A stretch of 64,000 nt of DNA from NCBI GenBank assembly GCA_965208675.1, contig OZ242351.1, positions 2,732,633 to 2,796,632 on the forward strand. Reading direction: 5' to 3'. A model generated the notes under the pieces. The model did not search any database. It was not told the origin of the DNA and worked only from the letters and a program-made list of their open reading frames with translations. Positions within the stretch are counted from its first letter, which is position 1; each line of letters starts with the position of its first letter. Position numbers and translations under genes: made by a program. Positions 24,079 to 46,564 of this stretch are shown one piece after another. Source of the stretch: Candidatus Poribacteria bacterium (GTDB taxonomy: Bacteria; Poribacteria; WGA-4E; PCPOR2b).

Positions 24079-24160
24079 TGTTCTTCATTCCTCCTTATAC
24101 CCCTTAATCAAACATAACGACGTTCTGCGATTTTTTCTAGCACTTTTTTTGAAGATGTAA

Positions 24161-24204
24161 CTGTCTGAATCAGGATTTACCGGATTAAAGGATTCCCAGG
24201 ATAT
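24161..24204 (-). promoter_or_regulatory. Conserved promoter core (phased AATCC x3 ... GATTCAGACAGTT) upstream of the 22594-24078 paralog
   Basis: Minus strand TATCCTGGGAATCCTTTAATCCGGTAAATCCTGATTCAGACAG. Followed by the conserved leader AAAAAGTGCTAGAAAAAATCGCAGAACG (24121-24150). Confidence 0.5.
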
Positions 24205-24219
24205 CAGATTAGTCGCGGG

Positions 24220-24257
24220 TTGAAAATAAAAAAGGCGAATGGGTTGTACCATTCGCC
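24220..24257 (-). terminator. Intrinsic terminator (9-bp stem GGCGAATGG/CCATTCGCC + T-tract) after the 24296-25765 gene
   Basis: Minus strand reads GGCGAATGGtacaacCCATTCGCC followed by TTTTTTATTTTC. Confidence 0.6.
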
Positions 24258-24295: not shown

Positions 24296-25765
24296 TTATT
24301 CCCTTGCATAAATTATCCACACTCCATCAACATTCCGCATCTTAACGAGGCGCATTATGCTTTCTGGTGGCTTTGGAAACCCTGGAGGAAGCTCTCCCAA
24401 TCCCGGTAGTTTTGGCATCGGCACGCTCAATCGGAAGTGAAATTCATCACCGACATATTCGCTCCTCACAATCTCCATCTCCCCATACATTTCCTGTGCC
24501 ATTTGCCGTATCTTCGCCTGCACTTTTGAATTCTGGTTAATCTCCAACATCATTTGCTGCAGACTATCCATCTGTTTTTCTGACATCGCTTCTTTTTCTT
24601 TCGACATCTCGTCGGAAATACGATCTGCTACGTCTTCTGAAAACCCATCACTGAAGATGTGCAAAGTAGTTTCAATGTGATTTCTGGCGGTCCCATCTAC
24701 GTACGGGAGCAATGCCTCAAAGTCAAAAGTCCTATATGCATCGAGATAAGTATCCATCAACTCTTCGGCGGCAAAACTAGCGCTTTCGGCTTCAAAAGAT
24801 GAATCAGTGACATTGCCTTTTTGAAAATCTTGATTGGTTGTCTCGTGCGTTGCTAGTTGTGAGATAGCGGCCTCCGATTGCGCGTCTGACTCATCAAGGT
24901 GAGCGAAAAAGTTTTCGATTTGCTGCATCTCCTCTGCAGAGATTTGCGGTTTGTCTTCAGGCACAGACGCGACGACTGCGCTTTTACGAGCGGCGTCCGT
25001 TTGAGCGACCGAGGTTTCAGGCTCAGTTGGCGTTGAAGCAACAATCTCTTCCGATGGCGACGAATCTTCTTTCGACGATAGGAACTGGCGCGTTCCGATG
25101 AAGGCGAGTACAATGATGGCTACGGCCCCGGCGGTGATTTTGGGTACTGTTCCAACTTTCATGACCGTTAATCCTCCTGAATAGATTTGTTTGAGTGTGG
25201 TTATCGGAGAAACGAATACACCAGAAAGCAGATGACCCAACCGCTTGGCGAGTTTCTGTTTGGCGCGTGAGAGTCGAAACGAAATTGCCTTGTATGACAA
25301 CCCGTGCGTCCGAATCAGTTCGTCGTAGCTTGCGCCTTCAAGATAGTACGAACGCGCGATGTCCCTATCTTTTTGCGGCAAGGTTTCCATCGCGCGGCGA
25401 ATCAGTTCTCTCTGTTCGCGGCGTATCAACTCTTCGTCAGGTGAATCCGCGGTTTGAAGCGTACCTTCGCTCACCTCGTTGATGGATACGGCGTCGATTC
25501 GTTGTTGTTCTCGCAACCAGTTTAAGGCTCGATTTCGCGCAATTTTTGCGAGCCAGCCTTTGAATCTTTTCGTATCCTCAAGTTGTGGCAAACCGCGGTA
25601 AGCGTTAAGGAAGATTTCTTGGACAACTTCCTCGGCGTCGTTGGGATTGTTTACGATTCCGATTACAATCGCATAAACGAAGGCATAATACGCCTGCATT
25701 AACTCAGTGAACGCACCTTCGTCCCATGTTTGGGCGCGAGAAATGAGGGCGTTGTCGTTATCCAC
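24296..25765 (-). CDS. ECF sigma-TM-periplasmic module fusion protein (subfamily A paralog)
   Basis: Same architecture and motifs. GTG start. C-terminus ...VKMRNVDGVWIIYARE. The sigma-domain region is nearly identical in DNA to the neighbouring paralogs. Confidence 0.8.
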   Translation of the reverse strand: MDNDNALISRAQTWDEGAFTELMQAYYAFVYAIVIGIVNNPNDAEEVVQEIFLNAYRGLPQLEDTKRFKGWLAKIARNRALNWLREQQRIDAVSINEVSEGTLQTADSPDEELIRREQRELIRRAMETLPQKDRDIARSYYLEGASYDELIRTHGLSYKAISFRLSRAKQKLAKRLGHLLSGVFVSPITTLKQIYSGGLTVMKVGTVPKITAGAVAIIVLAFIGTRQFLSSKEDSSPSEEIVASTPTEPETSVAQTDAARKSAVVASVPEDKPQISAEEMQQIENFFAHLDESDAQSEAAISQLATHETTNQDFQKGNVTDSSFEAESASFAAEELMDTYLDAYRTFDFEALLPYVDGTARNHIETTLHIFSDGFSEDVADRISDEMSKEKEAMSEKQMDSLQQMMLEINQNSKVQAKIRQMAQEMYGEMEIVRSEYVGDEFHFRLSVPMPKLPGLGELPPGFPKPPESIMRLVKMRNVDGVWIIYARE

Positions 25766-25839: not shown

Positions 25840-25883
25840 CTGTCTGACTCAGGATTTACCGGATTAAAGGATTCTCAGGATAT
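25840..25883 (-). promoter_or_regulatory. Conserved promoter core upstream of the 24296-25765 paralog
   Basis: TATCCTGAGAATCCTTTAATCCGGTAAATCCTGAGTCAGACAG plus the conserved leader. Confidence 0.5.
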
Positions 25884-25899
25884 CAGATTTTTCGCGGGC

Positions 25900-25937
25900 A
25901 GAAAATAAAAAAAGGCGAATGGGTTGAACCATTCGCC
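25900..25937 (-). terminator. Intrinsic terminator (same hairpin family) after the 25987-28728 gene
   Basis: GGCGAATGGttcaacCCATTCGCC + TTTTTTTATTTTC on the minus strand. Confidence 0.6.
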
Positions 25938-25986
25938 TTGTGAAATCTTGGGGAATACGGTTGTGGGTTTGTTAAGAGTTCCGCTT

Positions 25987-28728
25987 TTAATACAAATAAT
26001 TAACTTCGTAAATTTGCCATGCACCGTTCTCTTTTCGCATCTTAACAGACGTACCCGGCATCTCTAGGTGCTCGGGCATCTCCGGCAGCTCTATCCCCTG
26101 TAATTCGGGCATCTCCGATATGTCCGGTATCTCTATTTTCGGCATGGCTATTTTCAATTGGAAGTGGAATTCATCGTCGACATATTTACTGGTCACAATC
26201 TCAACCTGACTGAACATTGATCGCACCATCGGATTCTGCATCGTATCGTTTAACATCTGAATCATACCGTCCGCCATTTCTTCTGATAACCCAATGTCAT
26301 TATAATATATATCAACAAGCTCATCCGGAAGCTCACCGTTAAACATGCCTATAAGACCCGTTACCACTGGTCGGGCAGTGCCTGTCACATACGGCAGCAT
26401 CGTCTCAAGTTCAAGCTTTCTATACGCCTCTATATAGGCATTCATCAACTCTTCGGCGGATGCATTCGCGTCGGTTGTGCTGGACTCGGTTTCAGATTCA
26501 GACGGTAGTTGGGAGGTGTCCACTTCCGGTTCTTCGATTTGACCGAGGGAGTCCTTGCCAACGATGACGGTGGCGCGCTTGTTTCGAGGGAATACACTCG
26601 CCGCCAGGTGCTGCATGTCTGCATCGGTAACGCGCTGGATGGCATCACGCAATTCGTTGCCATCCAGTTTCAGTTGATACCGACGACCGGTGCTGAAAGC
26701 TAAACCGTAAAGGTTTTGCGCCCACATGGCATCCGGCACCTCAACTGTGCCCAACATTGCCATTGAGTTAAGCGTTCGCTGTTTGTCCTCCGGTGTAAGT
26801 TTTGTCGCCAACGCCGTGTTTAGGCGTTCGTCGAGTTGAATCAGTGCAATATGGTCGTCTGTGTCAGATTGTAGGTCGGTTTGGAGCACAAGTGTGGTAT
26901 CATCCTCCAGCGGTGTGAAGTACACACGCGGTGTTTTACCCGGCTGAAAGACGAACTGTGCGCTTGCCCACAAACGCGAGACAACTATCAGGAACGGCGC
27001 GTACTCCTTACTCCCGGGTCGGGGTGCAGCATATCCAATCGCTGCGACGCCGGTCGTATCGTCGTTCACAGGTTCTGCAGTAAGCAACCGCAGCCCGCCG
27101 GTCAATGCTATAGACTTGCGCGGTTTAATAGGGGGCGACACGCTGGGCGAAATGTGACCGAAGTTTTGGTGAATCAACTGCCGCGCTTCGGCAACGTCAA
27201 ACCCGCCTGCGATGGCAAGAATGGCGTTGTTCGGTTTGTAGTAATTCTGCCAAAATTGCTGGAGCTCGTCGAGCGTCATAGTCTCGATGTGCTCGGGCGC
27301 GACGCCGACGCGTCCGCCTTCGAGAATCGTGTGCAAGTGAGCTCGAACACTGTTTAAACCGACCAGCGACGGGACGCCACTATACATGTTCCTCAACTCC
27401 GCCATCACGCGAGGCACCTCACGATTCAGATCGGCTTGGGTAATGCGTAGGTCATTCATGCGGGTAGCCGCGTCCTTCAATTCGGACGCGAATTGTTTTG
27501 CTTCGACGACCCCGGCAAAAACGGTGTAGTCAAATCCCGTGTGCGAGTTCCAGCCTGCAACATAGCGTGCCTGAAGCTGTATGGCGCCGCGCGCTGGGGA
27601 GTCGCCGGCTGCAGCGGTATAATACAGGTGTTCAAGCAGGTGTGCTCTGCCGGACTTTCCGATCGGGTCGTGGTCTCCGCCCAAATTGAACAGCACTACA
27701 ACCGCCACTTGGCTTGACGTGGGAACAGGGCGTAGAATGACTGTCAGCCCATTTTCCAGTTTGTACGGCGCCCGTATCTCGGTCTTTGAAATTTTAACCT
27801 CGGCGACGGAGTTGATCGGACTCGGTTGCTCGGGCGAATTACCGACAATCCCCGTGCCGTGTTCACCAAGAACCGTTGGCGGTTTGGCCCCCTCGGCCAC
27901 GAGTTCCACCGGAATCTCTGCAAACATTGTCATCTGGATTTCGCTGGGAAGCGGTGAACTGGCCAGATCGCCGGGCGTAGCAACTGGTCGGAGAAATTGA
28001 TTGAAAAGCATAAAGGTAAGTACTATCCCGACGGTCGCTGAACCGATGAATGGAAGCAACGGCTTCGTTGAAATCGGTTGCACTTTGGTTGACTTAATGG
28101 CTTCGACGATTCGGAACGTAAAGCCTGACTGTAATTTTTTCTCTGCAAATGTGGTGTCTATCATCGAAATCAACTCCTCCTTCAGTTTGGTTCTGGCTCG
28201 CATCAACCGTTGGTTCACGGTGTTGACAGAAGTCCCCAAAAACCGCGCAATCTCCTTGCTACTCAGACCGCCAAGATAGTAGAGCGTCAACGTCTGTCGA
28301 TAGATTTCCGGCAATTGATCAATCGCCTCACGGATGGATTCGGCTGCGGCTTCGCTTCGATAGGCATCAATTGACGGTGTGTCCAAGAGCGCCGTGTCTT
28401 GGTCCTCGATGTAGTCTCCATCTGGACGGCGTAATCGGGATGTGAGAAAATTTGTGCACGAATTAACCGTAATTGAGAACAGCCACGCTAAGAAGTTATC
28501 CCGTCGCTTGAGGGTAGGAAGTTTCTGATAGGCTTTAATAAAGACTTCTTGGGTGATGTCCTCAGCATCGTGGAAGTTTCTAAGCTTTGTGTAAGCTAGG
28601 GCATAGACGCTCGACTTGTATTTATCAACGAGCAAGCCAAACGCCGCCGATTCTCCATTAAGGCATTTTCCGATGATGTATCCATCTTCTGTGTACACGG
28701 TTCTATTCCTCTCACCAAATGGCTTCAT
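25987..28728 (-). CDS. ECF sigma-TM fusion with periplasmic M16 (pitrilysin-like, HxxEH) peptidase domain and C-terminal KMRK..WRIY module (subfamily B)
   Basis: 913 aa. ECF regions 2 and 4 (DAEDITQEVFIKAYQKL; LSSKEIARFLGTSVNTVNQRLMRARTKL), TM (GSATVGIVLTFMLF), GKSGRAHLLEHLYYT inverted zinc motif, C-terminus ...SKYVDDEFHFQLK...VKMRKENGAWQIYEVNYLY. Confidence 0.8.
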   Translation of the reverse strand: MKPFGERNRTVYTEDGYIIGKCLNGESAAFGLLVDKYKSSVYALAYTKLRNFHDAEDITQEVFIKAYQKLPTLKRRDNFLAWLFSITVNSCTNFLTSRLRRPDGDYIEDQDTALLDTPSIDAYRSEAAAESIREAIDQLPEIYRQTLTLYYLGGLSSKEIARFLGTSVNTVNQRLMRARTKLKEELISMIDTTFAEKKLQSGFTFRIVEAIKSTKVQPISTKPLLPFIGSATVGIVLTFMLFNQFLRPVATPGDLASSPLPSEIQMTMFAEIPVELVAEGAKPPTVLGEHGTGIVGNSPEQPSPINSVAEVKISKTEIRAPYKLENGLTVILRPVPTSSQVAVVVLFNLGGDHDPIGKSGRAHLLEHLYYTAAAGDSPARGAIQLQARYVAGWNSHTGFDYTVFAGVVEAKQFASELKDAATRMNDLRITQADLNREVPRVMAELRNMYSGVPSLVGLNSVRAHLHTILEGGRVGVAPEHIETMTLDELQQFWQNYYKPNNAILAIAGGFDVAEARQLIHQNFGHISPSVSPPIKPRKSIALTGGLRLLTAEPVNDDTTGVAAIGYAAPRPGSKEYAPFLIVVSRLWASAQFVFQPGKTPRVYFTPLEDDTTLVLQTDLQSDTDDHIALIQLDERLNTALATKLTPEDKQRTLNSMAMLGTVEVPDAMWAQNLYGLAFSTGRRYQLKLDGNELRDAIQRVTDADMQHLAASVFPRNKRATVIVGKDSLGQIEEPEVDTSQLPSESETESSTTDANASAEELMNAYIEAYRKLELETMLPYVTGTARPVVTGLIGMFNGELPDELVDIYYNDIGLSEEMADGMIQMLNDTMQNPMVRSMFSQVEIVTSKYVDDEFHFQLKIAMPKIEIPDISEMPELQGIELPEMPEHLEMPGTSVKMRKENGAWQIYEVNYLY

Positions 28729-28822
28729 TTAGTATGACAATGCAAAAGACCGAAATATTACACGGGCAGACAATTTTTCGGTTGAAAGAGAGGATAAGTG
28801 ACAGGGTGTATCTGTTACCGAA

Positions 28823-28866
28823 CTGTCTGACTCAGGATTTACCGGATTAAAGGATTCTCAGGATAA
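28823..28866 (-). promoter_or_regulatory. Conserved promoter core upstream of the 25987-28728 (M16-containing) paralog
   Basis: TTATCCTGAGAATCCTTTAATCCGGTAAATCCTGAGTCAGACAG. The leader differs from the subfamily-A leader. Confidence 0.5.
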
Positions 28867-28882
28867 CAAATTTTTCGCGGGT

Positions 28883-28919
28883 TGAAAATAAAAAAGGCGA
28901 ATGGGTTGAACCATCCGCC
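28883..28919 (-). terminator. Intrinsic terminator (same hairpin family, 1 mismatch) after the 28966-30354 gene
   Basis: GGCGGATGGttcaacCCATTCGCC + TTTTTTATTTTC on the minus strand. Confidence 0.55.
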
Positions 28920-28965: not shown

Positions 28966-30354
28966 CTATTCATAAATTCGCCATGCCCCGTCCTCCTTTC
29001 GCATCTTAACAACGTTTTCTACGCTCTCCGGCAACTCTGGCATCTCGTCCAGTAGTTCCGCCCGTAGTTCTTCCGGCGTATCCCGCATCAGCGGTTCTAT
29101 CAGTGCTCCAAATTGTGGTAAAGTTGTTCTCACTCGAAAATGGAATTCATCGCCAACATATTCGCTGCTTACAACCTCGGACCCGCCAAGCACCGGGCCG
29201 AACGTCAACTCAATCATCTGCTTGAGCTCTGGATTTTCCTCCATAAAATCTTTCATGTCCGGCAAAACACTTTCCAGCTCTTCTTTAGCAGCCCCTGTCA
29301 ATAACGGGAGCATTGCCTAAAAGTCTAAATTCTTGGATGCCTCGATATAGGCGTTCATTACCTCTTCAGCGGATTGTTCCGTGTCTTCAACAACCGCATC
29401 GGTACTGATTGAGACATGCTGATCGAAGTCTTGCTGATGTGCGGCTTCTGCGTGTTGTGTTTTGTCCGATTGTGCGTCCGCTTCATCGAGTTGAGCGAAG
29501 AAGTTTTCAATTTGCTGCATCTCCTCTGCAGAGATTTGTGGTTTGTCTTCAGGCACAGGCGCGACGACTGCGCTTTTACGAGCGGCGTCCGTTTGAGCGG
29601 CGGAGGTTTCAGCCTCAGTTGGCGTTGAAGCAACAATCTCTACCGTTGGAGTCGAATCTTCTTTCGACGAAATGAACTGGCGTGTCCCGATGAAGGCGAG
29701 TGCGATGATGGCAACTGCCCCGGCGGTGATTTTGGGAACGGTTCCAACTTTCATGACCGTTAATCCTCCTGAGTAGATTTGTTTGAGTGTCAACGCGGGA
29801 AAGGCGAATACACCAGTGAGTAGATGGCTCAACCGCTTGGCGAGTTTCTGCTTGGCACGCGAAAGCCGAAACGAAATCGCCTTGTATGACAACCCATGCG
29901 TCCGAATCAGTTCGTCGTAGCTGGCGCCTTCAAGAAAGTAGGAGTGAGCGATGTCCCTATCTTTTTGCGGCAGCGATTCCATGGCACGTCGAATTAGTTC
30001 TCTCTGCTCGTCGCGAATCAAGCTTTCGTCAGCAGACTCTGACAACTGAACTGCCCGCTCATCCACTTCATCAATAGATACGGTGTCCAACCGCTGTTCG
30101 CGTAACCAGTTTAAGGCTCGATTTCGCGCAATTTTTGCCAGCCAACTCTTGAGTTTGGTCTGCTCCTCATACTGCGCTAAGGCGCAGTAGGCGTTGAGAA
30201 AGGTGTCTTGCACAATCTCTTCGGCGTCGTTGGGATTGTTCACGATTCCGATTACAACCGCATAAACGAAGGCATAATGCGCCCGCATCAATTCAGTGAA
30301 TGCACCTTCGTCTCCCGCTTGGGCGCGAGAAATGAGCGTATCGTCGTTCCTCAC
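28966..30354 (-). pseudogene. Subfamily-A ECF sigma-TM-module paralog interrupted by one in-frame TAG (29314-29316); may be expressed as two products
   Basis: ORFs 29317-30354 (sigma + TM + linker, ends ...KNLDF*) and 28966-29313 (AMLPLLTGAAKEE...VKMRKEDGAWRIYE) are in the same frame. Paralogs read DFEAM at this position, consistent with GAG to TAG. Confidence 0.6.
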
Positions 30355-30430: not shown

Positions 30431-30474
30431 CTGTCTGAATCAGGATTTACCGGATTAAGGGATTCTCAGGATAA
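30431..30474 (-). promoter_or_regulatory. Conserved promoter core upstream of the 28966-30354 paralog
   Basis: TTATCCTGAGAATCCCTTAATCCGGTAAATCCTGATTCAGACAG plus the conserved leader. Confidence 0.5.
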
Positions 30475-30491
30475 CAAAATACACGCGGGTT

Positions 30492-30527
30492 GAAAATAAA
30501 AAAGGCGAATGGGTTGAACCATTCGCC
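30492..30527 (-). terminator. Intrinsic terminator (same hairpin family) after the WD40 gene
   Basis: GGCGAATGGttcaacCCATTCGCC + TTTTTTATTTTC on the minus strand. Confidence 0.6.
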
Positions 30528-30557: not shown

Positions 30558-32441
30558 TCATCGAGAGACATCCCATAAAAGCACTGTTCCGTCGTAACTT
30601 CCACTCCCCAGCGTGCTCCCATCCGGGTTGAATGCCAGGGTACTAATGTACGACGTATGCCCCTTCAAGCTTCGTCGCTGCGTCTCCGTCTTGGCATCCC
30701 ACAGAAGGATGATTGCGTCGGCATCCCCACTCGCAAGCGTTCGTCCATTCGGGCTAAACTCTACCGCGGTAACATCTGCCGAGTGACCGTTTAGCGTTCT
30801 ACGGTGCGTCCCCGTGGCAGCATTCCAAAGCTGGACGGAATGGTCGCCGCTCCCACTGGCTATCTTGTTTCCGTCTGAGCTAAAGGCGACGCTCGTGATG
30901 TCCGCGGTATGACCCTTTAGTGTTCGGCGGTGCGCGCCCGTGGCGACATCCCAAAGTCGGATGGTTGCGTCGGTGCACCCGCTTGCCAACGTCGCGCCGT
31001 CTGGGCTGAACGCAAGCGTCGAGCGAGCCGGCCTGTAAACGCGAGGAACGGTGTCCGACGCCTCCCAGTGCAGGTTATGCAGTTGCGCACCCGTCTCGGC
31101 ATTCCACAGGCGGATAGTTGTTTCGCCGTTCCAACTTGCTACCGCTGAGCCATCCGGGCTGAACGCTATGCTGTGGTCTACGCCGTCATCGTTTCGTAAT
31201 GTCCGCAGATATGCACCTGTCTTTACATTCCAAAGGCAGACGGAATGATGCCCATTTCCACCTGCTAACGTTAGCCCATCCGGGCTAAATGCTATGCTAT
31301 GGGCCTCTGATAAATACCGGTCCAGTGACCGCTTGTGCTCGCCTGTCACAGCATCCCATAAACGAATGGGATTCAACCGGCTCGCACTTGCCAACGCCGC
31401 ACCGTTCGGGTTGAACGCTATGCTAATGACGGGTTTTATATGTCCATCCAGCGTCCCTAAGTGCGTATCCGTCACCGGATTCCACAGGCGAATTGTCCCG
31501 TCGTCACTCCCGCTTACCAACGTTGCACTATCCGGGCTGAAGACGACATGAGTGACCCAACCCGTATGTCCTTCTAGCTCCCGCAGCCGTGTTCCTGCCG
31601 CGACATTCCACAATCCGATGGTCGTGCCAGGCCCACCACTTGCCAAGATACTGCCATCCGGGCTGAACGCGACGCTCGAGACCATAGGTATGCGTTCTTC
31701 CAGTTGCCAAAGGTGTACTCCGGTCTTAGCGTTCCAAAGTCGGATGCTATCGCCCCAACCGCCGCTTGCCAGTACGCTGCCATCTGGGCTGAACGCGACC
31801 GCGGTGGCATACTCCGTGTGACCTTCCAGAGTTCGTACAGGTACGCCTGTCTCCACATCCCACAGACGAATAGTCTTGTCATAACTTGCGCCTGCCAACG
31901 TCGAGAAATCCGGGCTGAACGCGGCGGTACCAACGGAATATGTATCTCCCTGCGGAGTACGCAGTTCCAGTGACCGCGTATGTGTTTTAGTCTCGACATC
32001 CCACAGATGAACGGTCGTCTGCGACACACCTGCTAGTGTGCTGCCATCCGGGCTGAAAACCACGTTCAAGGTGCCCTCTGATTTTGCCTCCAGTGTATGT
32101 AGGTGTAAACCCGTCACGGCATCCCACAGACGAACGGTATTGTCCGAACTTCCACTCGCTAGCATGCTGCCATCCGGGCTGAACACTACGCTCGCCACAA
32201 TTCCCGAATGTCCGGTGAGCAGAGCTATCTCTTGATGGGTCGTTGTATCGTAGAGCCAGATACCGATTCCGCTGCCGACTGCAAGCCGAGCGCCATCGGG
32301 GGAATACTGTATTTGACCTATCGCCCCCTTTCCGATCCGCGCTACAACCCCTTCAGGCAAACCCCACTGCGAGGCATCTTGCGAAAAGGCGTTGCACAAG
32401 GTCAAGGAGAACAGTATATGCAAGGATAAAACTGTTTTCAT
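30558..32441 (-). CDS. Secreted WD40 beta-propeller repeat protein (~14 WD repeats)
   Basis: Signal peptide, then reiterated [HS]xxxVxSVAFSPDGxxLASGSxDxTIRLWD units throughout. Confidence 0.9.
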   Translation of the reverse strand: MKTVLSLHILFSLTLCNAFSQDASQWGLPEGVVARIGKGAIGQIQYSPDGARLAVGSGIGIWLYDTTTHQEIALLTGHSGIVASVVFSPDGSMLASGSSDNTVRLWDAVTGLHLHTLEAKSEGTLNVVFSPDGSTLAGVSQTTVHLWDVETKTHTRSLELRTPQGDTYSVGTAAFSPDFSTLAGASYDKTIRLWDVETGVPVRTLEGHTEYATAVAFSPDGSVLASGGWGDSIRLWNAKTGVHLWQLEERIPMVSSVAFSPDGSILASGGPGTTIGLWNVAAGTRLRELEGHTGWVTHVVFSPDSATLVSGSDDGTIRLWNPVTDTHLGTLDGHIKPVISIAFNPNGAALASASRLNPIRLWDAVTGEHKRSLDRYLSEAHSIAFSPDGLTLAGGNGHHSVCLWNVKTGAYLRTLRNDDGVDHSIAFSPDGSAVASWNGETTIRLWNAETGAQLHNLHWEASDTVPRVYRPARSTLAFSPDGATLASGCTDATIRLWDVATGAHRRTLKGHTADITSVAFSSDGNKIASGSGDHSVQLWNAATGTHRRTLNGHSADVTAVEFSPNGRTLASGDADAIILLWDAKTETQRRSLKGHTSYISTLAFNPDGSTLGSGSYDGTVLLWDVSR

Positions 32442-32681: not shown

Positions 32682-34895
32682 TTACTGATAATCAATGTCA
32701 TAAATTCGCCATTCATCAGCCTCTTTTCGCATCTTATAAGTCATATCCGGAATTTCCAGGTGGTCGGGCATCTCCGACAGTTCCATCCCCTCCGGCATTT
32801 CTATCCCTTGTAGTTCGGGCATTTCCGATACGTCCGGCATCTCTATTTTCGGTATCGGTATTCTCAATTTGAAATGAAATTCATTGCCGACAAATTCACT
32901 GCTTACAACCGTTAACTGACTGTATATTGAGCGCAAGCCTGCTTGCACCATGGGATTGTTCATAGAATCCTCCATCATCTGAACCGTGCCGTCCGGCATG
33001 GAATCTATAAGCTCTTCTGGAAACTCACCGCTAAACACGTCCATGGTACTTTTTACCTCTTCTAGGGCGGTGCCTGACAAATACGGGAGCATCGTATCAA
33101 GGTCAAGATTTTTATGTGCCTCTACAAAGGCGTTCATCACCTCTTCGGCGGATACGCCTGCGCTATCAACGCTTAATCGTGCATCCGATTCTTCAGAAGA
33201 GAGCAGAGAAGCGCCGCCAACGATGACGGTGTCGCGTTTCTCTGGCGAGAATACATTCGCTGCCAGGTGCTGCATATCTACATCGGTTACACGCTGGATG
33301 GCATCGCGCAGATCCCCGCCATTTAGTTTCAGTTGATACCGGCGGCCAATGCTGAACGCTAATCCGTACGGATTTTGCGCCCACATGGCATCCGGTACAT
33401 CAACTGTGCCCATCATTGCCATTGAGTTTATCGTTAGCTGTTTGTCCGCCGGCGTGAGTTTCGGCGTCAATGCCGTGTTTAGGCGTTGGTCGAGTTGATC
33501 GAGCGCTGACTCAATGTCCGCCTCAATTTGCACGTCGGTCTGGAGCACAAGCGTGGTGCCATCGTCCAATGGTGTAAAGTACACAGGCGGTGTTTTGCCC
33601 GGCTGAAATGCAGCCTGCGCGCCTGCCCACAAACGTGAGACAACTATCAGGAACGGCGCGTATTCCTTGCTCCCGGGTCGGGGTGCAGCATATCCAATCG
33701 CTGCGACGCCGGTCGTAACGTCGTTCACAGGTTCCGCGGTGATGAAGCGAATTGCCCCGGTCTTCGCTGCAGGCTTGGGCGGCTTTGCAGGCGGAGGCAT
33801 ACCGGACGGAATCAGGCTGAAGTTTTGGTCAATCAAATGCCGCGCTTCGGCAACGTCAAACCCGCCTGCGATGACAAGAACGGCGTTGTTCGGCTTGTAG
33901 TAATCCTGCCATAACTGCTGCAGTTCACCGAGAGTCATTGTCTCAATGTGCTCGGGCGCACCGCCGACCCGTCCGCTTTCGGGGATGGGGTGCACCTGAG
34001 CTCGCACACGGTTTATGCCGACCAGCGACGGCACGCCGCTGTACATGTTACTCAATTCTGTCATCACGCGAGGCACCTCGCGGATTAGATCAGCTAAGGT
34101 GATTTGCAAATCGTTCATGCGCGCAGCCGCATCCTTCAACTCCAACGCGAATTGCCCTGCTTCGACGACACCTGCAAAAACAGTGTAGTCGAACCCTGTT
34201 TGCGCGTTCCAGCCTGCAACATAGCGTTCTTGAAGCTTCATGGCGTCGCGCGCTGGGGTGTCACCGGCTGCAGCGGTGCAATACAGGTGTTCAAGCAGGT
34301 GTGCTCTGCCGGACTTTCCGATCGGGTCGTGGTCTCCGCCCAAATTGAACAGCACTACAACCGCCACTTGGCTTGACGTGGGAACAGGACGTAGAATGAC
34401 TGTCAGCCCATTGTCCAGTTTGTACGGGGTTGGTATCTCAGAATTCGAAATTGTAGCGGCGGCGTTCATCGAACTCGGTTGACCGGGCGAATTGCCGACA
34501 ACCCCCGTTCCGGGCTCACCGGCAACCGTCGGCGGTTTGGAGGCATCAGCAACGAGTTCAACCGGAATCTCTCCAATCATTGTCATCTGGATATCGCTGG
34601 GGTACGGTGAACTGGCCAGATCGCCGCGCGCAGCGGCTGGACGGAGCAATTGACTGAAAAACATAAAGGTAAGCACAATCCCGACTGCTGCTGAACCGAT
34701 GAACGCAGGCAACGGCTTTGTTGAAATTGGTTGCACTTTGGTTGACTTAATAGCTTCCACGATTCGGAACGTAAAGCCTGACTGTAATTTTCTCTCTGTA
34801 AATGTGGTGTCTATCATTGCAATTGACTCCTCCTTCAGTTTGGTTCTGGCTCGCATCAGCCAGTCGTTGACGGTATTGACGGAACGCTCAAACAC
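32682..34895 (-). CDS. Subfamily-B paralog lacking most of the sigma domain: region-4 remnant + TM + M16 peptidase domain + KMRK..WRIY module
   Basis: About 75% aa identity to 25987-28728 from SVNTVN..LMRARTKLKEE onward. HLLEH is intact. C-terminus ...YKMRKEADEWRIYDIDYQ. The ORF starts inside the sigma region-4 helix. Confidence 0.65.
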   Translation of the reverse strand: MFERSVNTVNDWLMRARTKLKEESIAMIDTTFTERKLQSGFTFRIVEAIKSTKVQPISTKPLPAFIGSAAVGIVLTFMFFSQLLRPAAARGDLASSPYPSDIQMTMIGEIPVELVADASKPPTVAGEPGTGVVGNSPGQPSSMNAAATISNSEIPTPYKLDNGLTVILRPVPTSSQVAVVVLFNLGGDHDPIGKSGRAHLLEHLYCTAAAGDTPARDAMKLQERYVAGWNAQTGFDYTVFAGVVEAGQFALELKDAAARMNDLQITLADLIREVPRVMTELSNMYSGVPSLVGINRVRAQVHPIPESGRVGGAPEHIETMTLGELQQLWQDYYKPNNAVLVIAGGFDVAEARHLIDQNFSLIPSGMPPPAKPPKPAAKTGAIRFITAEPVNDVTTGVAAIGYAAPRPGSKEYAPFLIVVSRLWAGAQAAFQPGKTPPVYFTPLDDGTTLVLQTDVQIEADIESALDQLDQRLNTALTPKLTPADKQLTINSMAMMGTVDVPDAMWAQNPYGLAFSIGRRYQLKLNGGDLRDAIQRVTDVDMQHLAANVFSPEKRDTVIVGGASLLSSEESDARLSVDSAGVSAEEVMNAFVEAHKNLDLDTMLPYLSGTALEEVKSTMDVFSGEFPEELIDSMPDGTVQMMEDSMNNPMVQAGLRSIYSQLTVVSSEFVGNEFHFKLRIPIPKIEMPDVSEMPELQGIEMPEGMELSEMPDHLEIPDMTYKMRKEADEWRIYDIDYQ

Positions 34896-35205
34896 TGCGC
34901 AATCTCTTTAGTAAATAGCCCCCTAGTATTTAACCCTTTGCTACGGGTAGAGAGATTCTGATACACTTAAAAAACATTACGTGCGCGGCATCCTCATCAT
35001 TAATTAAGTTACTCAGCTTTGCGTAAGCGAGAGCGTAGACGCTCGACTTGTATTTATCAAAGAGCAAGGCAAATGCCGCCGATTCTCTATTAAGGCATTT
35101 TCCGATGATGTATCCATCTTCCGTGTACACGCTGCTGCTCCTCTCACTGAACGACTTCATTTTGTAAGACAATGCAAAAGACTGAAAAATTACAAGGGTG
35201 GACAA
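34896..35205 (-). pseudogene. Disrupted N-terminal (sigma region 2) remnant of the 32682-34895 paralog
   Basis: ORF 34930-35205 translates MKSFSERSSSVYTEDGYIIGKCLNRESAAFALLFDKYKSSVYALAYAKL, which matches the N-terminus of the 25987-28728 paralog. About 300 bp covering sigma regions 2.3 to 4 are missing or garbled before the frame resumes at 34895. Confidence 0.6.
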
Positions 35206-35253
35206 TTTCTGGGCGGAAAGAGAGGATAATTATTGAGGTGAATCTGTTGCCAA

Positions 35254-35297
35254 ACTGTCTGAATCCGTATTTACTGGAATAAAGGATTCTTAGGATA
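35254..35297 (-). promoter_or_regulatory. Conserved promoter core (slightly diverged) upstream of the disrupted 32682-35205 paralog
   Basis: TTATCCTAAGAATCCTTTATTCCAGTAAATACGGATTCAGACAG. Confidence 0.45.
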
Positions 35298-35314
35298 ACA
35301 GATTTGTCGCGGGT

Positions 35315-35350
35315 TGGAAATAAAAAAGGCGAATGGGTTGAACCATTCGC
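35315..35350 (-). terminator. Intrinsic terminator (same hairpin family) after the 35427-36308 gene
   Basis: GGCGAATGGttcaacCCATTCGCC + TTTTTTATTTCC on the minus strand. Confidence 0.6.
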
Positions 35351-35426
35351 CTGGTGTATCGGGGCAAGGAAACTCCTCATACCAATGTCTACAGTACTCA
35401 TCCGACAGTTAATCGGTACTATGGAA

Positions 35427-36308
35427 TTATTCAGGGGAAGCCGAGTCGAAAGTGAAGCGCGTCTTCTGTGTATTTAGGGTCCCCTGGCGTTCGAGAAACT
35501 CGGCTAAAGGTTTAATATCTTCAATTGCGGTTTCTAAATTTTCAATCTCCTTGGCATGTTTTTCAGGGGAATGGTCTTTTAGCATCTGCTTTTTTAATTC
35601 GAGAAACCGAATAATCTCTGGAATCGTGCCTTCTTTCTCACGAGAAAGACGAAAAAAGAGTTCCTCCCATTCTTTTGTGAGAGGGTGTCCATGAAACGCG
35701 AGCGCGCTGAATGAGACAAGTTCCGCCCTTGCAGCTTTCGGGTCCGTCTGGAGCAGTTCATGAAATGCATGCAAATGCTCTTGCCCGACCTTGGTGTCCA
35801 AGATCGCCCCTGTTTTTGACGGCTCCTTCTGTTCATCCTGTTCCCGCGTTTCAAGAGTTGGCTCTGAACGTTCCCACATTTTTTTCAACTCATCGTAGTG
35901 TTCCAGCATTTTGCGGTGGTGTTGTATCTGTCTGGCAAACTCCCGGGCATTGATGTGTGTCAACATTCGGATTTCCAATTCGGACACCCGTTTGAGATCC
36001 GAAAGATGTTCAGTACCTTCTCGGCTAAGGCGAAAGTAGAGGGGCACCCATTCTTCAGCGAGTGCGTGTCCGCCAAACATTTTTTTTGCAACGTTTTGGA
36101 GTTCTGAGCGGGCTGCTGCAGGGTCGGTGGGCAGGCGTTTCTTAAATGTGTCGAGGTGCTCTGTCCAAAGTGTGCAGTCTATACGATACGGTTGAGAACG
36201 TGCAGGCCTCAGGTGTGGGGGTTCTGTGGGTTCACCTGAATGACCAAAAGAAAGAGATCCAATGCTGCAAAAAGTTAAGTAAAGCAAGCAAGTGATTATA
36301 TACCTCAT
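35427..36308 (-). CDS. Secreted hypothetical protein with an internal ~100-aa tandem duplication
   Basis: Signal peptide. Two repeats sharing TDPxAARxEL...GHxLxxEWxxLxFRLSRE... Confidence 0.55.
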   Translation of the reverse strand: MRYIITCLLYLTFCSIGSLSFGHSGEPTEPPHLRPARSQPYRIDCTLWTEHLDTFKKRLPTDPAAARSELQNVAKKMFGGHALAEEWVPLYFRLSREGTEHLSDLKRVSELEIRMLTHINAREFARQIQHHRKMLEHYDELKKMWERSEPTLETREQDEQKEPSKTGAILDTKVGQEHLHAFHELLQTDPKAARAELVSFSALAFHGHPLTKEWEELFFRLSREKEGTIPEIIRFLELKKQMLKDHSPEKHAKEIENLETAIEDIKPLAEFLERQGTLNTQKTRFTFDSASPE

Positions 36309-36478
36309 GATTCACTCCTTTTGAGGAAGGTGTTTTGCTCTCAGTATAACGGTGACGAAAGTAGTGTAGGTACGATAGGTTTGAACTTTCTGATACTGTC
36401 GGATAGAGTTGCGAGCTAGTCTAATGTTTCACTGTCATAAATTCGCCACACGCCATTCTCTTTTCGCATCTTGATAAT

Positions 36479-36919
36479 CTAATTCGAGGCGGTCACTTTT
36501 GAGATTGCCATTCCTGATATCTCCGGCATCTCGGGCGGCGGTCCGCCCATTTTGAAGTGGAATTCATCCCCAACATATTTGCTACTCACAACTCCTAACC
36601 GACTAAAATACTCAAGTACAGTTTGTTCAACCATCTGACGCATCTCAGCCGGCATTTCCGGTACAATTTCCGGATCCATGAGCGGGAAGCCCATTACCGC
36701 AGCCTTTTCAAACTCCTCTTTGGCAGTCCCTGTCATTAGCGAACCCATCGCCTCAAAGTCCATATTCTTAAACGCCTTCACGAAAGTATTCATCACATCT
36801 TCAGCAGATTGAGACGTGCTCCCTGACGGCATTTCCACATCTTTTTTCTCCGATACACTCAATGAACAGCCGTTAACAAACAAAGGCAAACAGACAAGGC
36901 TCACAATCAAAAATCGCAT
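36479..36919 (-). CDS. Stand-alone lipoprotein carrying the family's periplasmic module (no sigma, no TM), ending at an in-frame TAG
   Basis: Start MRFLIVSLVCLPLFVNGC (lipobox) with GGAG RBS. Contains FKNMDFEAMGSLMTGTAKEE and VSSKYVGDEFHFKM. The TAG at 36479-36481 is followed in frame by IIKMRKENGVWRIYDSETLD* up to about 36413. Confidence 0.6.
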   Translation of the reverse strand: MRFLIVSLVCLPLFVNGCSLSVSEKKDVEMPSGSTSQSAEDVMNTFVKAFKNMDFEAMGSLMTGTAKEEFEKAAVMGFPLMDPEIVPEMPAEMRQMVEQTVLEYFSRLGVVSSKYVGDEFHFKMGGPPPEMPEISGMAISKVTASN

Positions 36920-37136
36920 TTTCTCTCCTTTGTGGTAGTAGCGATTGGTAGACAAACCGTGTATGGCATTAGCGACAGGTTGCTTATCGCGGGAAGCTAG
37001 GAATGATTTGAGCATGCATCCACGTACATGTAATGACATTGACTACAACAAATTTTTGACCGCCACTCAGAAAAATGAAGTTGTCGTGAGGAGGCAAGAG
37101 TTCAGCCACAAGCCGATTATTCACCATCGGCTGCGT

Positions 37137-38639
37137 TCAATCGGATACTGATTCGCGCGAGTCCAATATCTCACTCTCATAAACCCGCCACGCGCCATTC
37201 CCTTTCCGCATCTTGAAAAGTGTATTTGGCACAATGACGTCTGAGATTTCTATCCATGTAATCTCCGACTTATCCGGCGCTGGTCCTCCCAATACAAAGT
37301 GAAATTCATCGCCGACATATTCGTTACGCACCACATCTAGCTGACTGAGAGATTTCAGCCACACGTTTCGCATCTTCCGCTCAAATGCCCCACTTCTTAT
37401 CTCTTGTTCAATACTCCGCATCTGCTGTTCAGCCATCTGACGCATCTCAACCGGCAAATCCGACAAATCTTTTAGCCTATCTAGCAGTTTAGCTAGTTCA
37501 GCCGGGTCTAGGATTGGGAAGTTGCCTGTCGCCGCCATGGCCCACTCTCCTTTGATGCGTCCTGTGGATAGAGAGTGTACCGCTTCAAAGTCAAGATTCT
37601 GAAACCCTTTCACATAAGCGTTCATCACTTCTTCTGCGGATAAGTCCGTGTCTTCTGCTACAACAGGTGAATCGGTGTCGCCTAATTCGGAATCCTGATT
37701 AGATGCTTCATCTGTTGCTAGTTGTGGCGAATCTGCCTCCGATTGTGCGTCTGCACCCTCAAGTTGAGCGAAGAAGTCCTCAATCTGCCCCATCTCCTCC
37801 GCTGAAATTTGCGGCTTACCCTCACGCGAGGGTGCGGCGAACGTACCTTTACGCGTGGCGTCCGTTTGTGAGGCTAGGTTTGCAGACTCAGTTGATGTTA
37901 CAATCTCGACCGTAGGGGAGTTATCCTCTTTCGACGATATGAACTGGCGTGTCCCGATGAAAGCGAGTACAATGATGGCTACCGCACCGGCAGTGATTTT
38001 GGCAACTGTTCCAACTTTCATGACCGTTAATCCTCCTGAATAGAAATTTTTGAGTGAGGTTATCGGAGAAACGAACACACCGCTGAGCAGATGCTCCAAC
38101 CGTTTGGCAAGTTTCTGTTTGGCGCGCGAAAGTCGAACCGAAATCGCTTTGTAAGACAGTCCGTGCGTACTCATTAGTTCGTCATAGTCCGCACCGTCAA
38201 GGTAATAAGAGTGAACAATCTCCCGCTCTTTTGGAGAAAGCGTTCCAAGTGCGCGTCGAATCAGCTCCCTCTGTTCACTGAGAATCAACTGTTCGTCTGG
38301 CAATTCTTGCGTCTTGACGGTGGATTTACCGATTTCATCAAACAGGCTTAATTCGTCTATAGGAACAGTATCAATCCGTTGTTTTCTCAGCCAACTTCGT
38401 GCGCGATTTCGAGCAATCTCTGCGAGCCAAGTTTTGAATTTTGACCTCTCCTCATACTGCGCCAAACCACGGTAGACGTTGAGAAAGGTGTCCTGGACAA
38501 TCTCTTCGGCGTCTTGGGGGTTGTTCACCATATCGATGACGATTGCATAAACGAAAGAGTGATATGCCCGTATCAGATCGACAAATGCACCTTCATCCCC
38601 AGCTCGCGCGCGACAAATGAGTGCGCTGTCATTATCCAC
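37137..38639 (-). CDS. ECF sigma-TM-periplasmic module fusion protein (subfamily A paralog)
   Basis: 500 aa. GTG start. Sigma regions 2 and 4, TM (KITAGAVAIIVLAFIGT), PQISAEEMGQIEDFF, C-terminus ...NEYVGDEFHFVL...FKMRKGNGAWRVYESEILD... Confidence 0.8.
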   Translation of the reverse strand: MDNDSALICRARAGDEGAFVDLIRAYHSFVYAIVIDMVNNPQDAEEIVQDTFLNVYRGLAQYEERSKFKTWLAEIARNRARSWLRKQRIDTVPIDELSLFDEIGKSTVKTQELPDEQLILSEQRELIRRALGTLSPKEREIVHSYYLDGADYDELMSTHGLSYKAISVRLSRAKQKLAKRLEHLLSGVFVSPITSLKNFYSGGLTVMKVGTVAKITAGAVAIIVLAFIGTRQFISSKEDNSPTVEIVTSTESANLASQTDATRKGTFAAPSREGKPQISAEEMGQIEDFFAQLEGADAQSEADSPQLATDEASNQDSELGDTDSPVVAEDTDLSAEEVMNAYVKGFQNLDFEAVHSLSTGRIKGEWAMAATGNFPILDPAELAKLLDRLKDLSDLPVEMRQMAEQQMRSIEQEIRSGAFERKMRNVWLKSLSQLDVVRNEYVGDEFHFVLGGPAPDKSEITWIEISDVIVPNTLFKMRKGNGAWRVYESEILDSRESVSD

Positions 38640-38714
38640 TGTGCTTCGTTCCTCTCTTGTACCTTAACCAAAACGCCGTTCTGCGATTTTTTCTACTACT
38701 TTTTTGGGTATTTT

Positions 38715-38749
38715 CTGTCTGAATCAGGATTTACTGGAGTAAGGATTTA
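38715..38749 (-). promoter_or_regulatory. Partial promoter core upstream of the 37137-38639 paralog, split from its upstream half by a ~140-bp insertion
   Basis: TAAATCCTTACTCCAGTAAATCCTGATTCAGACAG. The matching upstream half (...ATCCTGAAAAG and the hairpin remnant) lies at 38896-38960. Confidence 0.4.
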
Positions 38750-39039
38750 CACAGCTGAACACCCAAAGGTTCGTAGTAGGACAATTTAATGCCCGTTTTT
38801 ACTTAAAAATATGTCAGGTCAAGGGTGTGAAGGACATACCGGACGCGCAATAAATTACGCTACTACAAGCTGAACTGCCTATGTCCTAGGAATACAGGCT
38901 TTTCAGGATAAAAAAATTTTCACGGGTTGAAAATGAAACAGGCGAATGGGTAAAAATAATTGCCTAGCGAGGGGCTGGGGTGAGAGACGTTGGTTGTTTA
39001 ACTTTTCATCCGATAGATGCGCCATTCCCCGTCTACTTT

Positions 39040-39807
39040 TCACATGCTAACGACTAGTCCAAAATTGCTGTATGCATCGGCCATCGGCACGGTCAATCGG
39101 AATTGGAATTCATCGCCGACATATTCACTACCCACGATTGTCGTCTGACGGAAAATTCGACGCCATTTCGCTAGGTTTTCCGGAGATCGAATTGAATCCA
39201 TTGCTTTGTAAGCCGACTCAACTGCCTCGTCTATTTCAGTTTCGGACATACCATCGTCGATTGAAGTCAGGTAGTCATTCAGCATTTTTTCCGGCATCAC
39301 CCCACCGAGAACACTCAAAAGGTTTTCAATAGGTTTCCTGGCATTCTCAGTAGTGAATGGGAGAACCGTCTCCAAATCGAAATCCCTAAACGCATCCACG
39401 AACTTATTCATCACTTGTTCAGCGGGATGCTCTAGATTTGCACCCGAGTCTTCGGAGAAGTGTTCAGCGCTATCCTGTATTATCTCTGCGTTTAGTGATG
39501 ATTTCGGTTCATCCAACTCTGGTTGTTCAGCCATGTCTTCGAGTTGGGCGAAAAAGTCCTCAATTTGCTGCAGCTCTGCGGCAGAGATTCGCAGCGTGTC
39601 TTCTGGCAAAGCGCTATCGATTTCGGCATTTCGCGCCGTACGCGTTTGAGCGGCCGAATCTGAAAACTCCTTTGGCGATGATATTACAATCTCAACCTCT
39701 CGATCCGAATCCTCTTCAGCCGAAATGAACCAGAGTGTTATAATCGTGCCGACTAAAATGAGGGCTACTGCACCGGCTACGGTTTTGTGAAGCGTTCCAA
39801 ATTTCAT
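39040..39807 (-). CDS. Sigma-less family member (TM anchor + acidic linker + periplasmic module) with premature TGA in the KMRK motif
   Basis: Starts MKFGTLHKTVAGAVALILVGTIITL, homologous to the ...MKVGTVPKITAGAVAIIVLAFIGT segment of full-length paralogs. Contains LRISAAELQQIEDFFAQLED and ...SEYVGDEFQFRL...VVSM. The TGA at 39040-39042 is followed in frame by KVDGEWRIYRMKS* (CGA to TGA at the Arg of KMRK). Confidence 0.65.
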   Translation of the reverse strand: MKFGTLHKTVAGAVALILVGTIITLWFISAEEDSDREVEIVISSPKEFSDSAAQTRTARNAEIDSALPEDTLRISAAELQQIEDFFAQLEDMAEQPELDEPKSSLNAEIIQDSAEHFSEDSGANLEHPAEQVMNKFVDAFRDFDLETVLPFTTENARKPIENLLSVLGGVMPEKMLNDYLTSIDDGMSETEIDEAVESAYKAMDSIRSPENLAKWRRIFRQTTIVGSEYVGDEFQFRLTVPMADAYSNFGLVVSM

Positions 39808-39860
39808 AATTTCTCCTGTATAGCGTTTTCGCGTGTGGGTATCGGAAACAGGAACCGTTT

Positions 39861-45130: not shown

Positions 45131-46564
45131 CTATTCATAAATCTGCCATGTACCGTTCTCTTTTCGCATCTTATGAAGAAAGTCGGGCATTTCCGGCATC
45201 TCAGGCATCTGAAATGTCTCGGGAATCTCTGAAATGTCCTGCCCAAACCTTCCTAGCATCTCTGACATTTCCGGCAACTGGCTCCTTAATCGAAAGTGGA
45301 ATTCCTCGCCGACAAACTCACTGCTCACAATCTCTGCTTGACTAAACATCTGTTTAAGGATTGGTTGCATCATTCCTTGTATCATCTGAAGTGTCTCATC
45401 TGCCTCGTCTTCTGGCAAACCACTATCATAAAAAATTTCCTCAATCTCTTGTGGTAACCCTCCTAAAGGCAAACTACTTTCAAACTCTTCTTTGGCTGCA
45501 CCTGTCAGAAATGAGAGCATCGCGCCAGCGTCAAAATTCCGGAACGCCTTCAGATAAGCGTTCATTACATCTTCAGCGGATTGAGTGGTGTCTTCTGGCG
45601 TCGCCCATGAGTCGGTGGCATCGCCCGCATCGGCGTTCTTATCTAAGGCTTCGTCCGTTACTTGTTGCGACGTATCCGTCGCCGAATGCGAGTCTGCCTC
45701 GTCAAGTTGAGCGAAGAAGTCCTCAATCTGCTGCATCTCTTCTGCGGAGATTCGCGGTTTATCTTCACGCGGGGGTGCGGTGACTGCATTACTTCGTATG
45801 GCATCCGTTTGGATGGCCGGTTGCGCGGACTCTGTTGAAGTCACAATCTCAACCGACGAGGACGTATCCTCTTCTGACGAAATGAACTGGCGCGTCCCGA
45901 TGTAGGCTAGTATGACGACGGCTACTACCCCCGCGGTGATTTTGGGTATTGTTCCAACTTTCATGACCGTTAATCCTCCTGAATAGATTTTTTTGAGTGT
46001 CGACGCGGGAATAGCGAACACCCCAGTGAGCAGATGACCCAACCGCTTGGAGAGTTTCTGTTTGGCACGCGAAAGCCGTACCGAAACCGCTTTGTACGAC
46101 AACCCATGCGTCCTCGTCAACTCGTCGTAGCTTGCGCCTTCAATATAGTACGACCGGGCAATCTCCCGCTCACCTGGCGAAAGCGTCTCTATCGCACGGC
46201 GAATGAGTTCGCTCTGTTCACGGTGTATCAACTCGTCGTCCGGTGCATCCGAGGGCGATAGTGTGTGCTCCCCCACCTCATTGATGGACACGGTATCAAT
46301 CCGCTGTTCTCGCTGCCAGTTGAGCGCACGATTTCGCGCAATTTTTGCCAGCCAGTTTTTAAACTTTTTCGCATCCTCGAGGTCTGGCAGGCCGCGATAA
46401 GCGTTGAGAAAAGAATCTTGCACGACCTCTTCGGCGTCTTGGGGATTTTTCACGATTCCGATAACAATCGCATAGACATAACCATAATGCACCCGCAATA
46501 GATCGACGAATGCACCTTCGTCCCCGGATTGTGCGCGAGCAATTGTGTCCTCGTTAATAATCAC
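45131..46564 (-). CDS. ECF sigma-TM-periplasmic module fusion protein (subfamily A paralog); lacks the conserved promoter core upstream
   Basis: 477 aa. GTG start. Sigma regions 2 and 4, TM (KITAGVVAVVILAYIGT), PRISAEEMQQIEDFF, C-terminus ...SEFVGEEFHFRL...LHKMRKENGTWQIYE. Confidence 0.8.
   Translation of the reverse strand: MIINEDTIARAQSGDEGAFVDLLRVHYGYVYAIVIGIVKNPQDAEEVVQDSFLNAYRGLPDLEDAKKFKNWLAKIARNRALNWQREQRIDTVSINEVGEHTLSPSDAPDDELIHREQSELIRRAIETLSPGEREIARSYYIEGASYDELTRTHGLSYKAVSVRLSRAKQKLSKRLGHLLTGVFAIPASTLKKIYSGGLTVMKVGTIPKITAGVVAVVILAYIGTRQFISSEEDTSSSVEIVTSTESAQPAIQTDAIRSNAVTAPPREDKPRISAEEMQQIEDFFAQLDEADSHSATDTSQQVTDEALDKNADAGDATDSWATPEDTTQSAEDVMNAYLKAFRNFDAGAMLSFLTGAAKEEFESSLPLGGLPQEIEEIFYDSGLPEDEADETLQMIQGMMQPILKQMFSQAEIVSSEFVGEEFHFRLRSQLPEMSEMLGRFGQDISEIPETFQMPEMPEMPDFLHKMRKENGTWQIYE

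Follow-up and report, generated by a model that had tools for sequence, protein, structure and literature searches.

Sigma/anti-sigma hybrids among extracytoplasmic function (ECF) sigma factors undergo activation by regulated proteolysis, as in IutY of Pseudomonas putida (ECF243), and the same hybrid mechanism has been predicted for ECF48, ECF52 and ECF53, e.g. SCO4117 (PMC8999054). Members of ECF41, ECF56 and ECF294 carry SnoaL/NTF2-like C-terminal extensions (PMC7826278, PMC8999054), and co-component systems such as ToxR/ToxS and VtrA/VtrC pair a membrane-tethered regulator with a periplasmic partner (PMC9214523). ECF sigma factors fused to membrane sensors are known but poorly understood, and the locus described here shows the outcome of losing the sigma part. 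It lies in a 64,000-nucleotide stretch of a Candidatus Poribacteria genome (the window), where a tandem family on the minus strand, at bases 22.5-46.6 kb, includes three genes without a sigma domain, denoted E, H and F (Table 1). Among the papers listed by a literature search, none connected Poribacteria with ECF sigma factors.

We think it likely that sigma was lost in three successive stages, exemplified by E, F and H, each of which is now a conserved sigma-less gene type in this clade, and that the F and H alleles of this particular genome are null. The sensor half of a fused sigma factor would then be able to survive as an independent gene under selection, either as a membrane-anchored peptidase or as a periplasmic NTF2-like protein.

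Anatomy and selection of the sigma-less genes

The parent family has expanded in this genome and is made up of ECF sigma factors that are single polypeptides, one subtype of which contains an M16 zinc-peptidase unit. The full-length paralogs A, B, G and K (477-500 amino acids (aa) each) consist of ECF sigma regions 2 and 4 (Pfam), a linker of about 25 residues, one transmembrane (TM) helix, an acidic linker and a C-terminal module of about 150 residues that ends GDEFHF...KMRKxxGxWRIY. Paralog C has an ECF sigma domain unlike that of the other four, and its M16 peptidase unit sits between the TM helix and the module. The module has the alpha+beta cone of the NTF2-like superfamily, with a curved antiparallel sheet against which the N-terminal helices pack. 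Few proteins carry it: a set of 1.84 billion yields 105 representatives of the module family. Pfam matched Sigma70_r2 and r4 in A, C, D and G, and neither of them in E, F or H. The only sigma sequence that tblastn picks up is in pieces upstream of E, corresponding to residues 1-74 and 167-194 of C, with none at F or H. The initial annotation of this DNA, which had called all three genes copies lacking a functional sigma domain, was thus right about their nature, and they lie on the minus strand where it had placed them. It had missed the in-frame stops that end F and H, and the likely start codon of E.

Sigma loss can be followed most closely in E. In a DNA alignment with C, E retains the sequence upstream of C together with ~55 codons from the start of sigma, which are followed by ~55 nucleotides (nt) of scrambled sequence with a 1-nt frameshift and then by two gaps, with a net ~220 bp gone, before homology picks up again inside region 4. 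A deletion of sigma regions 2.3 to 4.1, as had been suggested, is therefore supported by the alignment, although it is smaller than the ~300 bp first estimated. The deletion junction and the scrambled stretch are common to the window and to the related loci L087 and L004, so sigma was lost once in E, before these lineages split.

Translation of E probably starts at ATG 34817 (MIDTTF). Selection was measured as pairwise Nei-Gojobori ratios of nonsynonymous to synonymous substitution (dN/dS), and the neutral comparison came from random mutation simulations with the observed transition bias (500 for E). The first 35 codons from this ATG, which encode a cytoplasmic stub, are the most constrained part of the gene, with dN/dS of 0.06-0.17 in most comparisons, and the stub is nearly identical to the matching segment of C. 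GAAGGAGGAG stands ahead of the ATG in all copies, and gene callers picked this codon. GTG 34895, the mechanical start of the open reading frame (ORF), was rejected because the 26 codons between the two give small, scattered dN/dS estimates (0.3-2.0) and the GTG is absent in L093. The earlier view that the ORF begins inside the region-4 helix agrees with the point at which homology resumes, but the likely start lies after region 4. The remnant of region 4 probably now serves as the 5' leader of E, with GAAGGAGGAG as its ribosome-binding site.

E is under clear purifying selection. Its orthologs give dN/dS of 0.28-0.37 (against L087, L004 and L093), the neutral simulations give about 0.75-0.8 with a median near 0.8, and none of the 500 simulations was as low as observed. 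Sigma-bearing C gives matching values against its own outgroups (0.33-0.37). The frame is open in at least five lineages, namely the window (711 aa), L087 and L093 (714 aa), P0150 and P0152, and is interrupted in L004 by one CAG-to-TAG change. In this genome E has neither the disrupted frame nor the neutral evolution of a pseudogene.

The M16 unit of E (residues 131-528) aligns over both lobes to the zinc protease 4nnz in PDB (E=1e-19), with HLLEH pairing with HALEH and REVPRVMTE with the SEIEVIKEE segment. It is 60-65% identical to widespread stand-alone pitrilysin-family proteins of ~437 aa. The M16_C lobe scores 49 bits against a Pfam cut-off of 23 bits, and the sequence hallmarks of peptidase family M16, HxxEH with a downstream Glu and both M16 and M16_C lobes, can be recognised. 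E is probably a working gene, whose predicted product is a sigma-less, N-in, membrane-anchored periplasmic peptidase of pitrilysin type with a C-terminal NTF2-like module. Translated from the internal GGAGG-ATG just past the former region 4, it would act as an autonomous envelope protease or sensor with no transcriptional output.

H would represent a further stage, in which the entire sigma part is gone and the gene begins at the ATG with which the TM helix starts in all full-length paralogs. The upstream sequence at 39808-39860 aligns to the sigma-TM linker of the paralogs and abuts the stop of a PhyH-like gene, so both the start at the TM anchor and the relic of linker DNA, noticed earlier, stand. 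The junction, from just past the PhyH stop into the linker, is identical in the window, L004, L089 and L090, and arose in a single old event. Intact orthologs of 269 aa are found in L093 and P0297. In L088-L090 the H-type gene is an intact 255-aa frame with an H-like TM-linker and an F-like module, and is probably a recombinant. L004, L005 and L006 share an independent stop, a TAA in mid-module. The dN/dS of H is 0.22-0.47; comparison among L088, L089 and L090 yielded 0-1 differences only and was uninformative on selection for the H-type gene. Frameshifts in the L092 ortholog were discounted, as that assembly breaks many conserved genes and they may be assembly errors.

In F, the TM helix and linker appear to have been swapped for a lipoprotein signal peptide. 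The protein reads MRFLIVSLVCLPLFVNGC and then the module, in line with the LFVNGC-type signal first noticed there. A search with F returned 18 homologs, none of which has a sigma domain (0/18). Most have a signal peptide of the form MRFxIVxLVCLxLxVxGCSLGVSEKKD and a full terminal strand, and the latter is present in nearly all those read, e.g. P0121-P0127 and P0133-P0136. In some the F-type signal peptide is joined to a different module subtype. F is a member of a conserved family of proteins that combine a predicted lipoprotein signal with an NTF2-like module. Extending the F ORF upstream to 37039 was rejected, since that frame is broken by stops or a frameshift in L004, L087, L091 and L093. 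The dN/dS of F is 0.29-0.48, with few changes.

The F and H alleles of the window each end at a private nonsense codon. The window F is the shortest member of its 90% cluster, the other members of which read through the stop position. Ten alignment columns of the module are invariant, four of them (K, R, W, Y) in the last hairpin, and the two stops remove this terminal beta-hairpin, which is half of the sheet; ~13-20 conserved codons lie beyond each stop. Neither the TAG of F nor the TGA of H is present in the orthologs, so both alleles have the truncated frame expected of pseudogenes and, judged by what they have lost, are probably inactive. Neutral evolution is not seen in either gene, as dN/dS lies mostly below the simulations, and inactivation must therefore be recent. 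Intact H and F would be periplasmic NTF2-module proteins, which may have the same binding target as the module of the sigma-fused paralogs. As explanations of the in-frame stops, reassigned stop codons and programmed readthrough were rejected, since TAG, TGA and TAA are all involved and ordinary genes of the window end at them. The two private nonsense codons are no more than ~5 codons apart in the alignment and lie in KMRK or immediately ahead of it, for which a rough estimate of chance is ~5%.

Two of the three ORFs are thus truncated alleles in this genome, and the mechanical start of the third is probably wrong, which is a warning for annotation.

Related loci, neighbouring genes and family turnover

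Related Poribacteria loci were reached through orthologs of G and are syntenic with the window (gene orders in Table 1). The more distant of these hold full sigma fusions, and the nearer relatives hold sigma-less genes at matching positions. In L093, H, the F-type gene and E are intact, and only a fragment is left of G, the sigma fusion next to them. Sigma-less architectures keep their positions, and several related genomes have them intact, so the proposal that these are, or recently were, stand-alone genes and not random debris holds. Strains ~98% identical over aligned DNA differ in which family copies are broken, and the nonsense alleles of F and H fit rapid birth-and-death turnover across the whole family.

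Among strains ~98% identical over aligned DNA, a fused gene in L089 (930-2377) and L090 (379-1815), compared with L088 (1197-2645), is broken by small indels close to where the sigma domain ends. Two ORFs result, one of ~186 aa for sigma and one of ~282 aa for the TM helix and module, the latter starting at the internal ATG; this looks like a first step towards H-type genes. Many 270-290-aa proteins in a library clustered at 50% identity start at the TM ATG, and at least some of them come from frameshifted sigma fusions, so the library count of sigma-less forms is only an upper bound. At 13401-15329 of L087, a WD40 propeller is joined to the sigma domain, stub and TM helix of the C type, in a gene that is then interrupted by a transposase; a WD40 protein in the window (30558-32441) has its own signal peptide instead of the sigma-TM part. 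The sigma-TM cassette appears to have been shuffled between different periplasmic domains.

Paralog D (28966-30354, minus strand) is split by a single in-frame TAG at 29317-29319, early in the module. The paralogs have GAG or GAA at this site, the remainder of D is in frame, and gene callers report 345 + 115 aa. Most related loci keep gene X as a neighbour, with the G/F genes on one side and E on the other; its dN/dS against L004 is 0.57. An identical terminator hairpin (GGCGAATGG...CCATTCGCC and a T-run) and a ~90-nt repeat (containing ATCCTGAGAATCCTTTAATCCGGTAAATCCTGATTCAGACAGTT) trail every family unit. The repeated element, which abuts the E sigma remnant directly in L004, is a likely substrate for rearrangements at the locus. 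Many modules also have a variable insert rich in Met, Pro and Glu (e.g. EMPDVSEMPELQGIEMPEGMELSEMPD) between the GDEFHF and KMRK strands, where model confidence is low.

Table 1. Positions in the window of the sigma-less genes, their parts and neighbouring features, with gene orders at related loci
Feature	Position	Strand	Description
E	32682..34817	-	Sigma-less gene, 711 aa; gene callers give the same 711-aa product on this genome
E cytoplasmic stub	34713-34817	-	~35 residues
E TM helix	~34647-34712	-	One helix
E M16 peptidase unit	~33234-34427	-	Contains HLLEH
E NTF2-like module	32685-33161	-	C-terminal
Sigma region 4 remnant	34818..34904	-	Precedes the ATG of E; from alignments
Scrambled stretch and deletion junction	34905..35005	-	Sigma regions 2.3 to 4.1 lost, net ~220 bp
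Dead 5' sigma remnant	34930..35160	-	Region 1.2-2.2 codons running into a stop
E upstream region	35161..35326	-	Homologous to the upstream region of C
H	39043..39807	-	255-aa ORF: 8 cytoplasmic residues, TM helix, acidic linker, shortened NTF2-like module
H TM helix	~39724-39783	-	
Premature TGA of H	39040..39042	-	Arg codon of invariant KMRK; CGA in L004, Arg in L093
Former 3' end of H	38998..39039	-	KVDGEWRIYRMKS and stop, in frame past the TGA
Sigma-TM linker relic	39808..39860	-	With AGGAG ribosome-binding site, between PhyH stop and H start
F	36482..36919	-	146-aa ORF: probable lipoprotein signal peptide (LFVNGC) and shortened NTF2-like module
Premature TAG of F	36479..36481	-	In frame; Glu in L004 and L087 orthologs and in other 90%-cluster members
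Former 3' end of F	36416..36478	-	Conserved IIKMRKENGVWRIYDSETLD and stop, still in frame past the TAG
F 5' region	36920..37070	-	Conserved, non-coding; invariant AAAGGAGAGAAA ahead of the ATG
A	22594-24078	-	Full-length paralog
B	24296-25765	-	Full-length paralog
C	25987-28728	-	Full-length paralog, 913 aa
G	37137-38639	-	Intact full-length sigma-TM-module paralog between H and F; context
K	45131-46564	-	Full-length paralog
X	35427-36308	-	293 aa, signal peptide, no Pfam match; two similar-looking ~120-aa halves
Hairpin and ~90-nt repeat sites	~24150-24250, 25850-25950, 28800-28900, 30440-30520, 35230-35352, 38920-38960		
Internal AGGAGG-ATG sites	23480-23500, 25165-25185, 38020-38040, 45965-45985		Same site in L001-L007 and L087
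C/E-subtype sites	34817-34845, 28145-28175		GAAGGAGGAG ahead of MIDTTF
Variable module loop, strands 2-3	32720-32830, 26020-26120, 45160-45260		
Loci L001, L002, L003 (more distant)			PhyH, one full sigma fusion, 293-aa X, one full sigma-M16 fusion, further sigma fusions
Locus L007			Order as L001-L003; X not detected
Loci L004/L005/L006			PhyH, H, G, F, X, E
Locus L087 with L092			H, G, F, E
Locus L093			PhyH, H, G remnant, F-type, E
Locus L091			G-type, then F-type
Loci L088-L090			PhyH, then H-type gene

Weighing the explanations

A number of points weigh against the reading of E, F and H as stages of sigma loss that became conserved genes. The N-lobe of the E peptidase scores 21.5 bits, just under the Pfam cut-off of 22.3. 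The lipobox Cys is kept in the signal-peptide-bearing F homologs that were read, except in L004, which has Tyr, and the Asn at position -2 in the F lipobox is atypical of the lipobox consensus. For F and H, few substitutions underlie the dN/dS values (P = 0.002-0.16 and 0.03), which give no date for the nonsense mutations, and the nonsense codons themselves are known from a single assembly. Support for promoters is limited to sequence conservation and one weak sigma-70-like match upstream of E (35253-35226). The E remnant and leader (34818-35040, against ~14080-14301 of L004) differ by 0.05, compared with 0.30 at synonymous sites of E; this low divergence may reflect recombination between the lineages, or an unrecognised constraint or function.

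Among the alternatives, the least improbable, and still an unlikely one, is that the sigma-less modules are periplasmic decoys or partners, which would bind the modules of paralogs, or ligand, and so tune sigma release, with the truncated alleles perhaps dominant-negative. The F module is 53-58% identical to G and the G orthologs and 74% identical to the L089 chimera, and G is the likely source of its type. An F-type gene directly follows a G-type sigma fusion in L004, L087 and L091 as in the window, an order kept in four lineages, which together with the module similarity favours some link. Internal starts would also permit sigma-less isoforms. Of the ~28 copies of full-length paralogs examined, nearly all have TCA GGA GGn ... 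ATG where the TM helix begins, i.e. AGGAGG ~8-9 nt ahead of an in-frame ATG, with varying third codon positions nearby; H and E begin exactly at such ATGs. This conserved element may be an internal start site or the relic of a two-gene ancestor. However, strict dependence on G is argued against by L093, where the sigma-less genes stay intact beside a fragment of G, the F-type signal peptide occurs with different module subtypes, and a product lacking half of its beta-sheet is unlikely to be folded and dominant-negative.

It is also unlikely that all three copies are pseudogenes, i.e. decaying leftovers of duplicated sigma fusions whose frames are open only because little time has passed. This was the fallback of the initial annotation, and it fits the window alleles of F and H in so far as each has one lineage-specific nonsense codon removing invariant residues; it does not fit E. 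In its favour are these premature stops, the nonsense mutation of E and the independent mutation of H in L004, the degraded terminator hairpin downstream of H, and the frequent disruption of the family, with ~9 of the 41 sigma-fused copies across the sampled loci split. From gene tables, ~4-5 of 14 sigma-less copies are disrupted, which is not clearly higher than 9/41, no formal test having been made. Scattered frameshifts, proposed earlier as the sign of dead genes, are seen in none of E, F and H. The loss of sigma from E predates a divergence of dS 0.13-0.30, yet its 711 codons are open in at least five lineages at a dN/dS of ~0.3, equal to that of sigma-bearing C against outgroups, and many lineages have F-type and H-type genes that are undamaged and keep their synteny. 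The dead sigma remnant of E behaves differently from the ORF: against L087 it has diverged by 0.155, near the dS of 0.13, and has gained 2 indels, which the ORF has not, and its 5' part is wholly lost in L004 and L093.

The internal GGAGG-ATG raises a further, rather improbable, prospect, in which the family routinely makes two products per gene, a tethered sigma factor and a sigma-less TM-module protein; under this view E, H and F make the short isoform only, and their periplasmic modules would pair with those of the sigma-fused paralogs and gate the proteolytic release of the latter. If true, this would amount to a built-in decoy layer for one-polypeptide sigma factors.

That these are stand-alone anti-sigma proteins, as was first suggested, finds no support, since Pfam matched no anti-sigma family (class I ASD, ZAS, RskA or FecR types) in E, F or H, and the cytoplasmic part is ~35 residues long in E, ~8 in H and absent from F; the narrower idea that the E stub acts in trans like an anti-sigma factor, binding the sigma domain of C or a released sigma, is very unlikely, as its strong constraint and near identity with C could reflect membrane-insertion or protease-recognition signals, and at 35 residues it is shorter than typical class I anti-sigma domains.

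Comparison with known systems

Three successive stages of sigma loss thus remain the preferred reading, and they form a natural series from fused protein to sigma remnant, TM-anchored module and lipoprotein, which lets one ask what the outer module does by itself. The parent family resembles the IutY-type hybrids in placing ECF sigma2-sigma4, a membrane span and an extracytoplasmic domain in one polypeptide. It differs from them in its short linker, which spans ~25-35 residues and contains no recognisable ZAS or FecR-type anti-sigma domain, and in its outer domain, an NTF2-like module to which an M16 peptidase may be added. E, F and H have no sigma part and therefore cannot work like IutY-type hybrids.

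Like ECF41, ECF56 and ECF294, the parent family fuses an NTF2-superfamily domain C-terminally to an ECF sigma factor; none of the SnoaL Pfam models reaches threshold on the module. In those groups, however, the extension is cytoplasmic and contacts sigma directly, whereas here the module would lie beyond the TM helix, outside the cytoplasm. E's central 400 residues, with HxxEH conserved, resemble stand-alone periplasmic M16 peptidases (4nnz and the ~437-aa Poribacteria 'pitrilysin family protein'), from which E differs in its C-terminal NTF2-like module and at its N-terminal end, where a sigma fusion has left it a cytoplasmic stub and a TM anchor.

The likeness to ToxR/ToxS and VtrA/VtrC is one of gene order only, with a tethered G followed by a predicted periplasmic F related to the sensor domain of G. 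The fold differs, being NTF2-like in G and F, and the F-type gene persists without G in L093. The processes involved at this locus, i.e. duplication, domain loss and pseudogenisation, are ordinary ones; what is new is the existence of conserved sigma-less derivatives of a one-polypeptide sigma factor.

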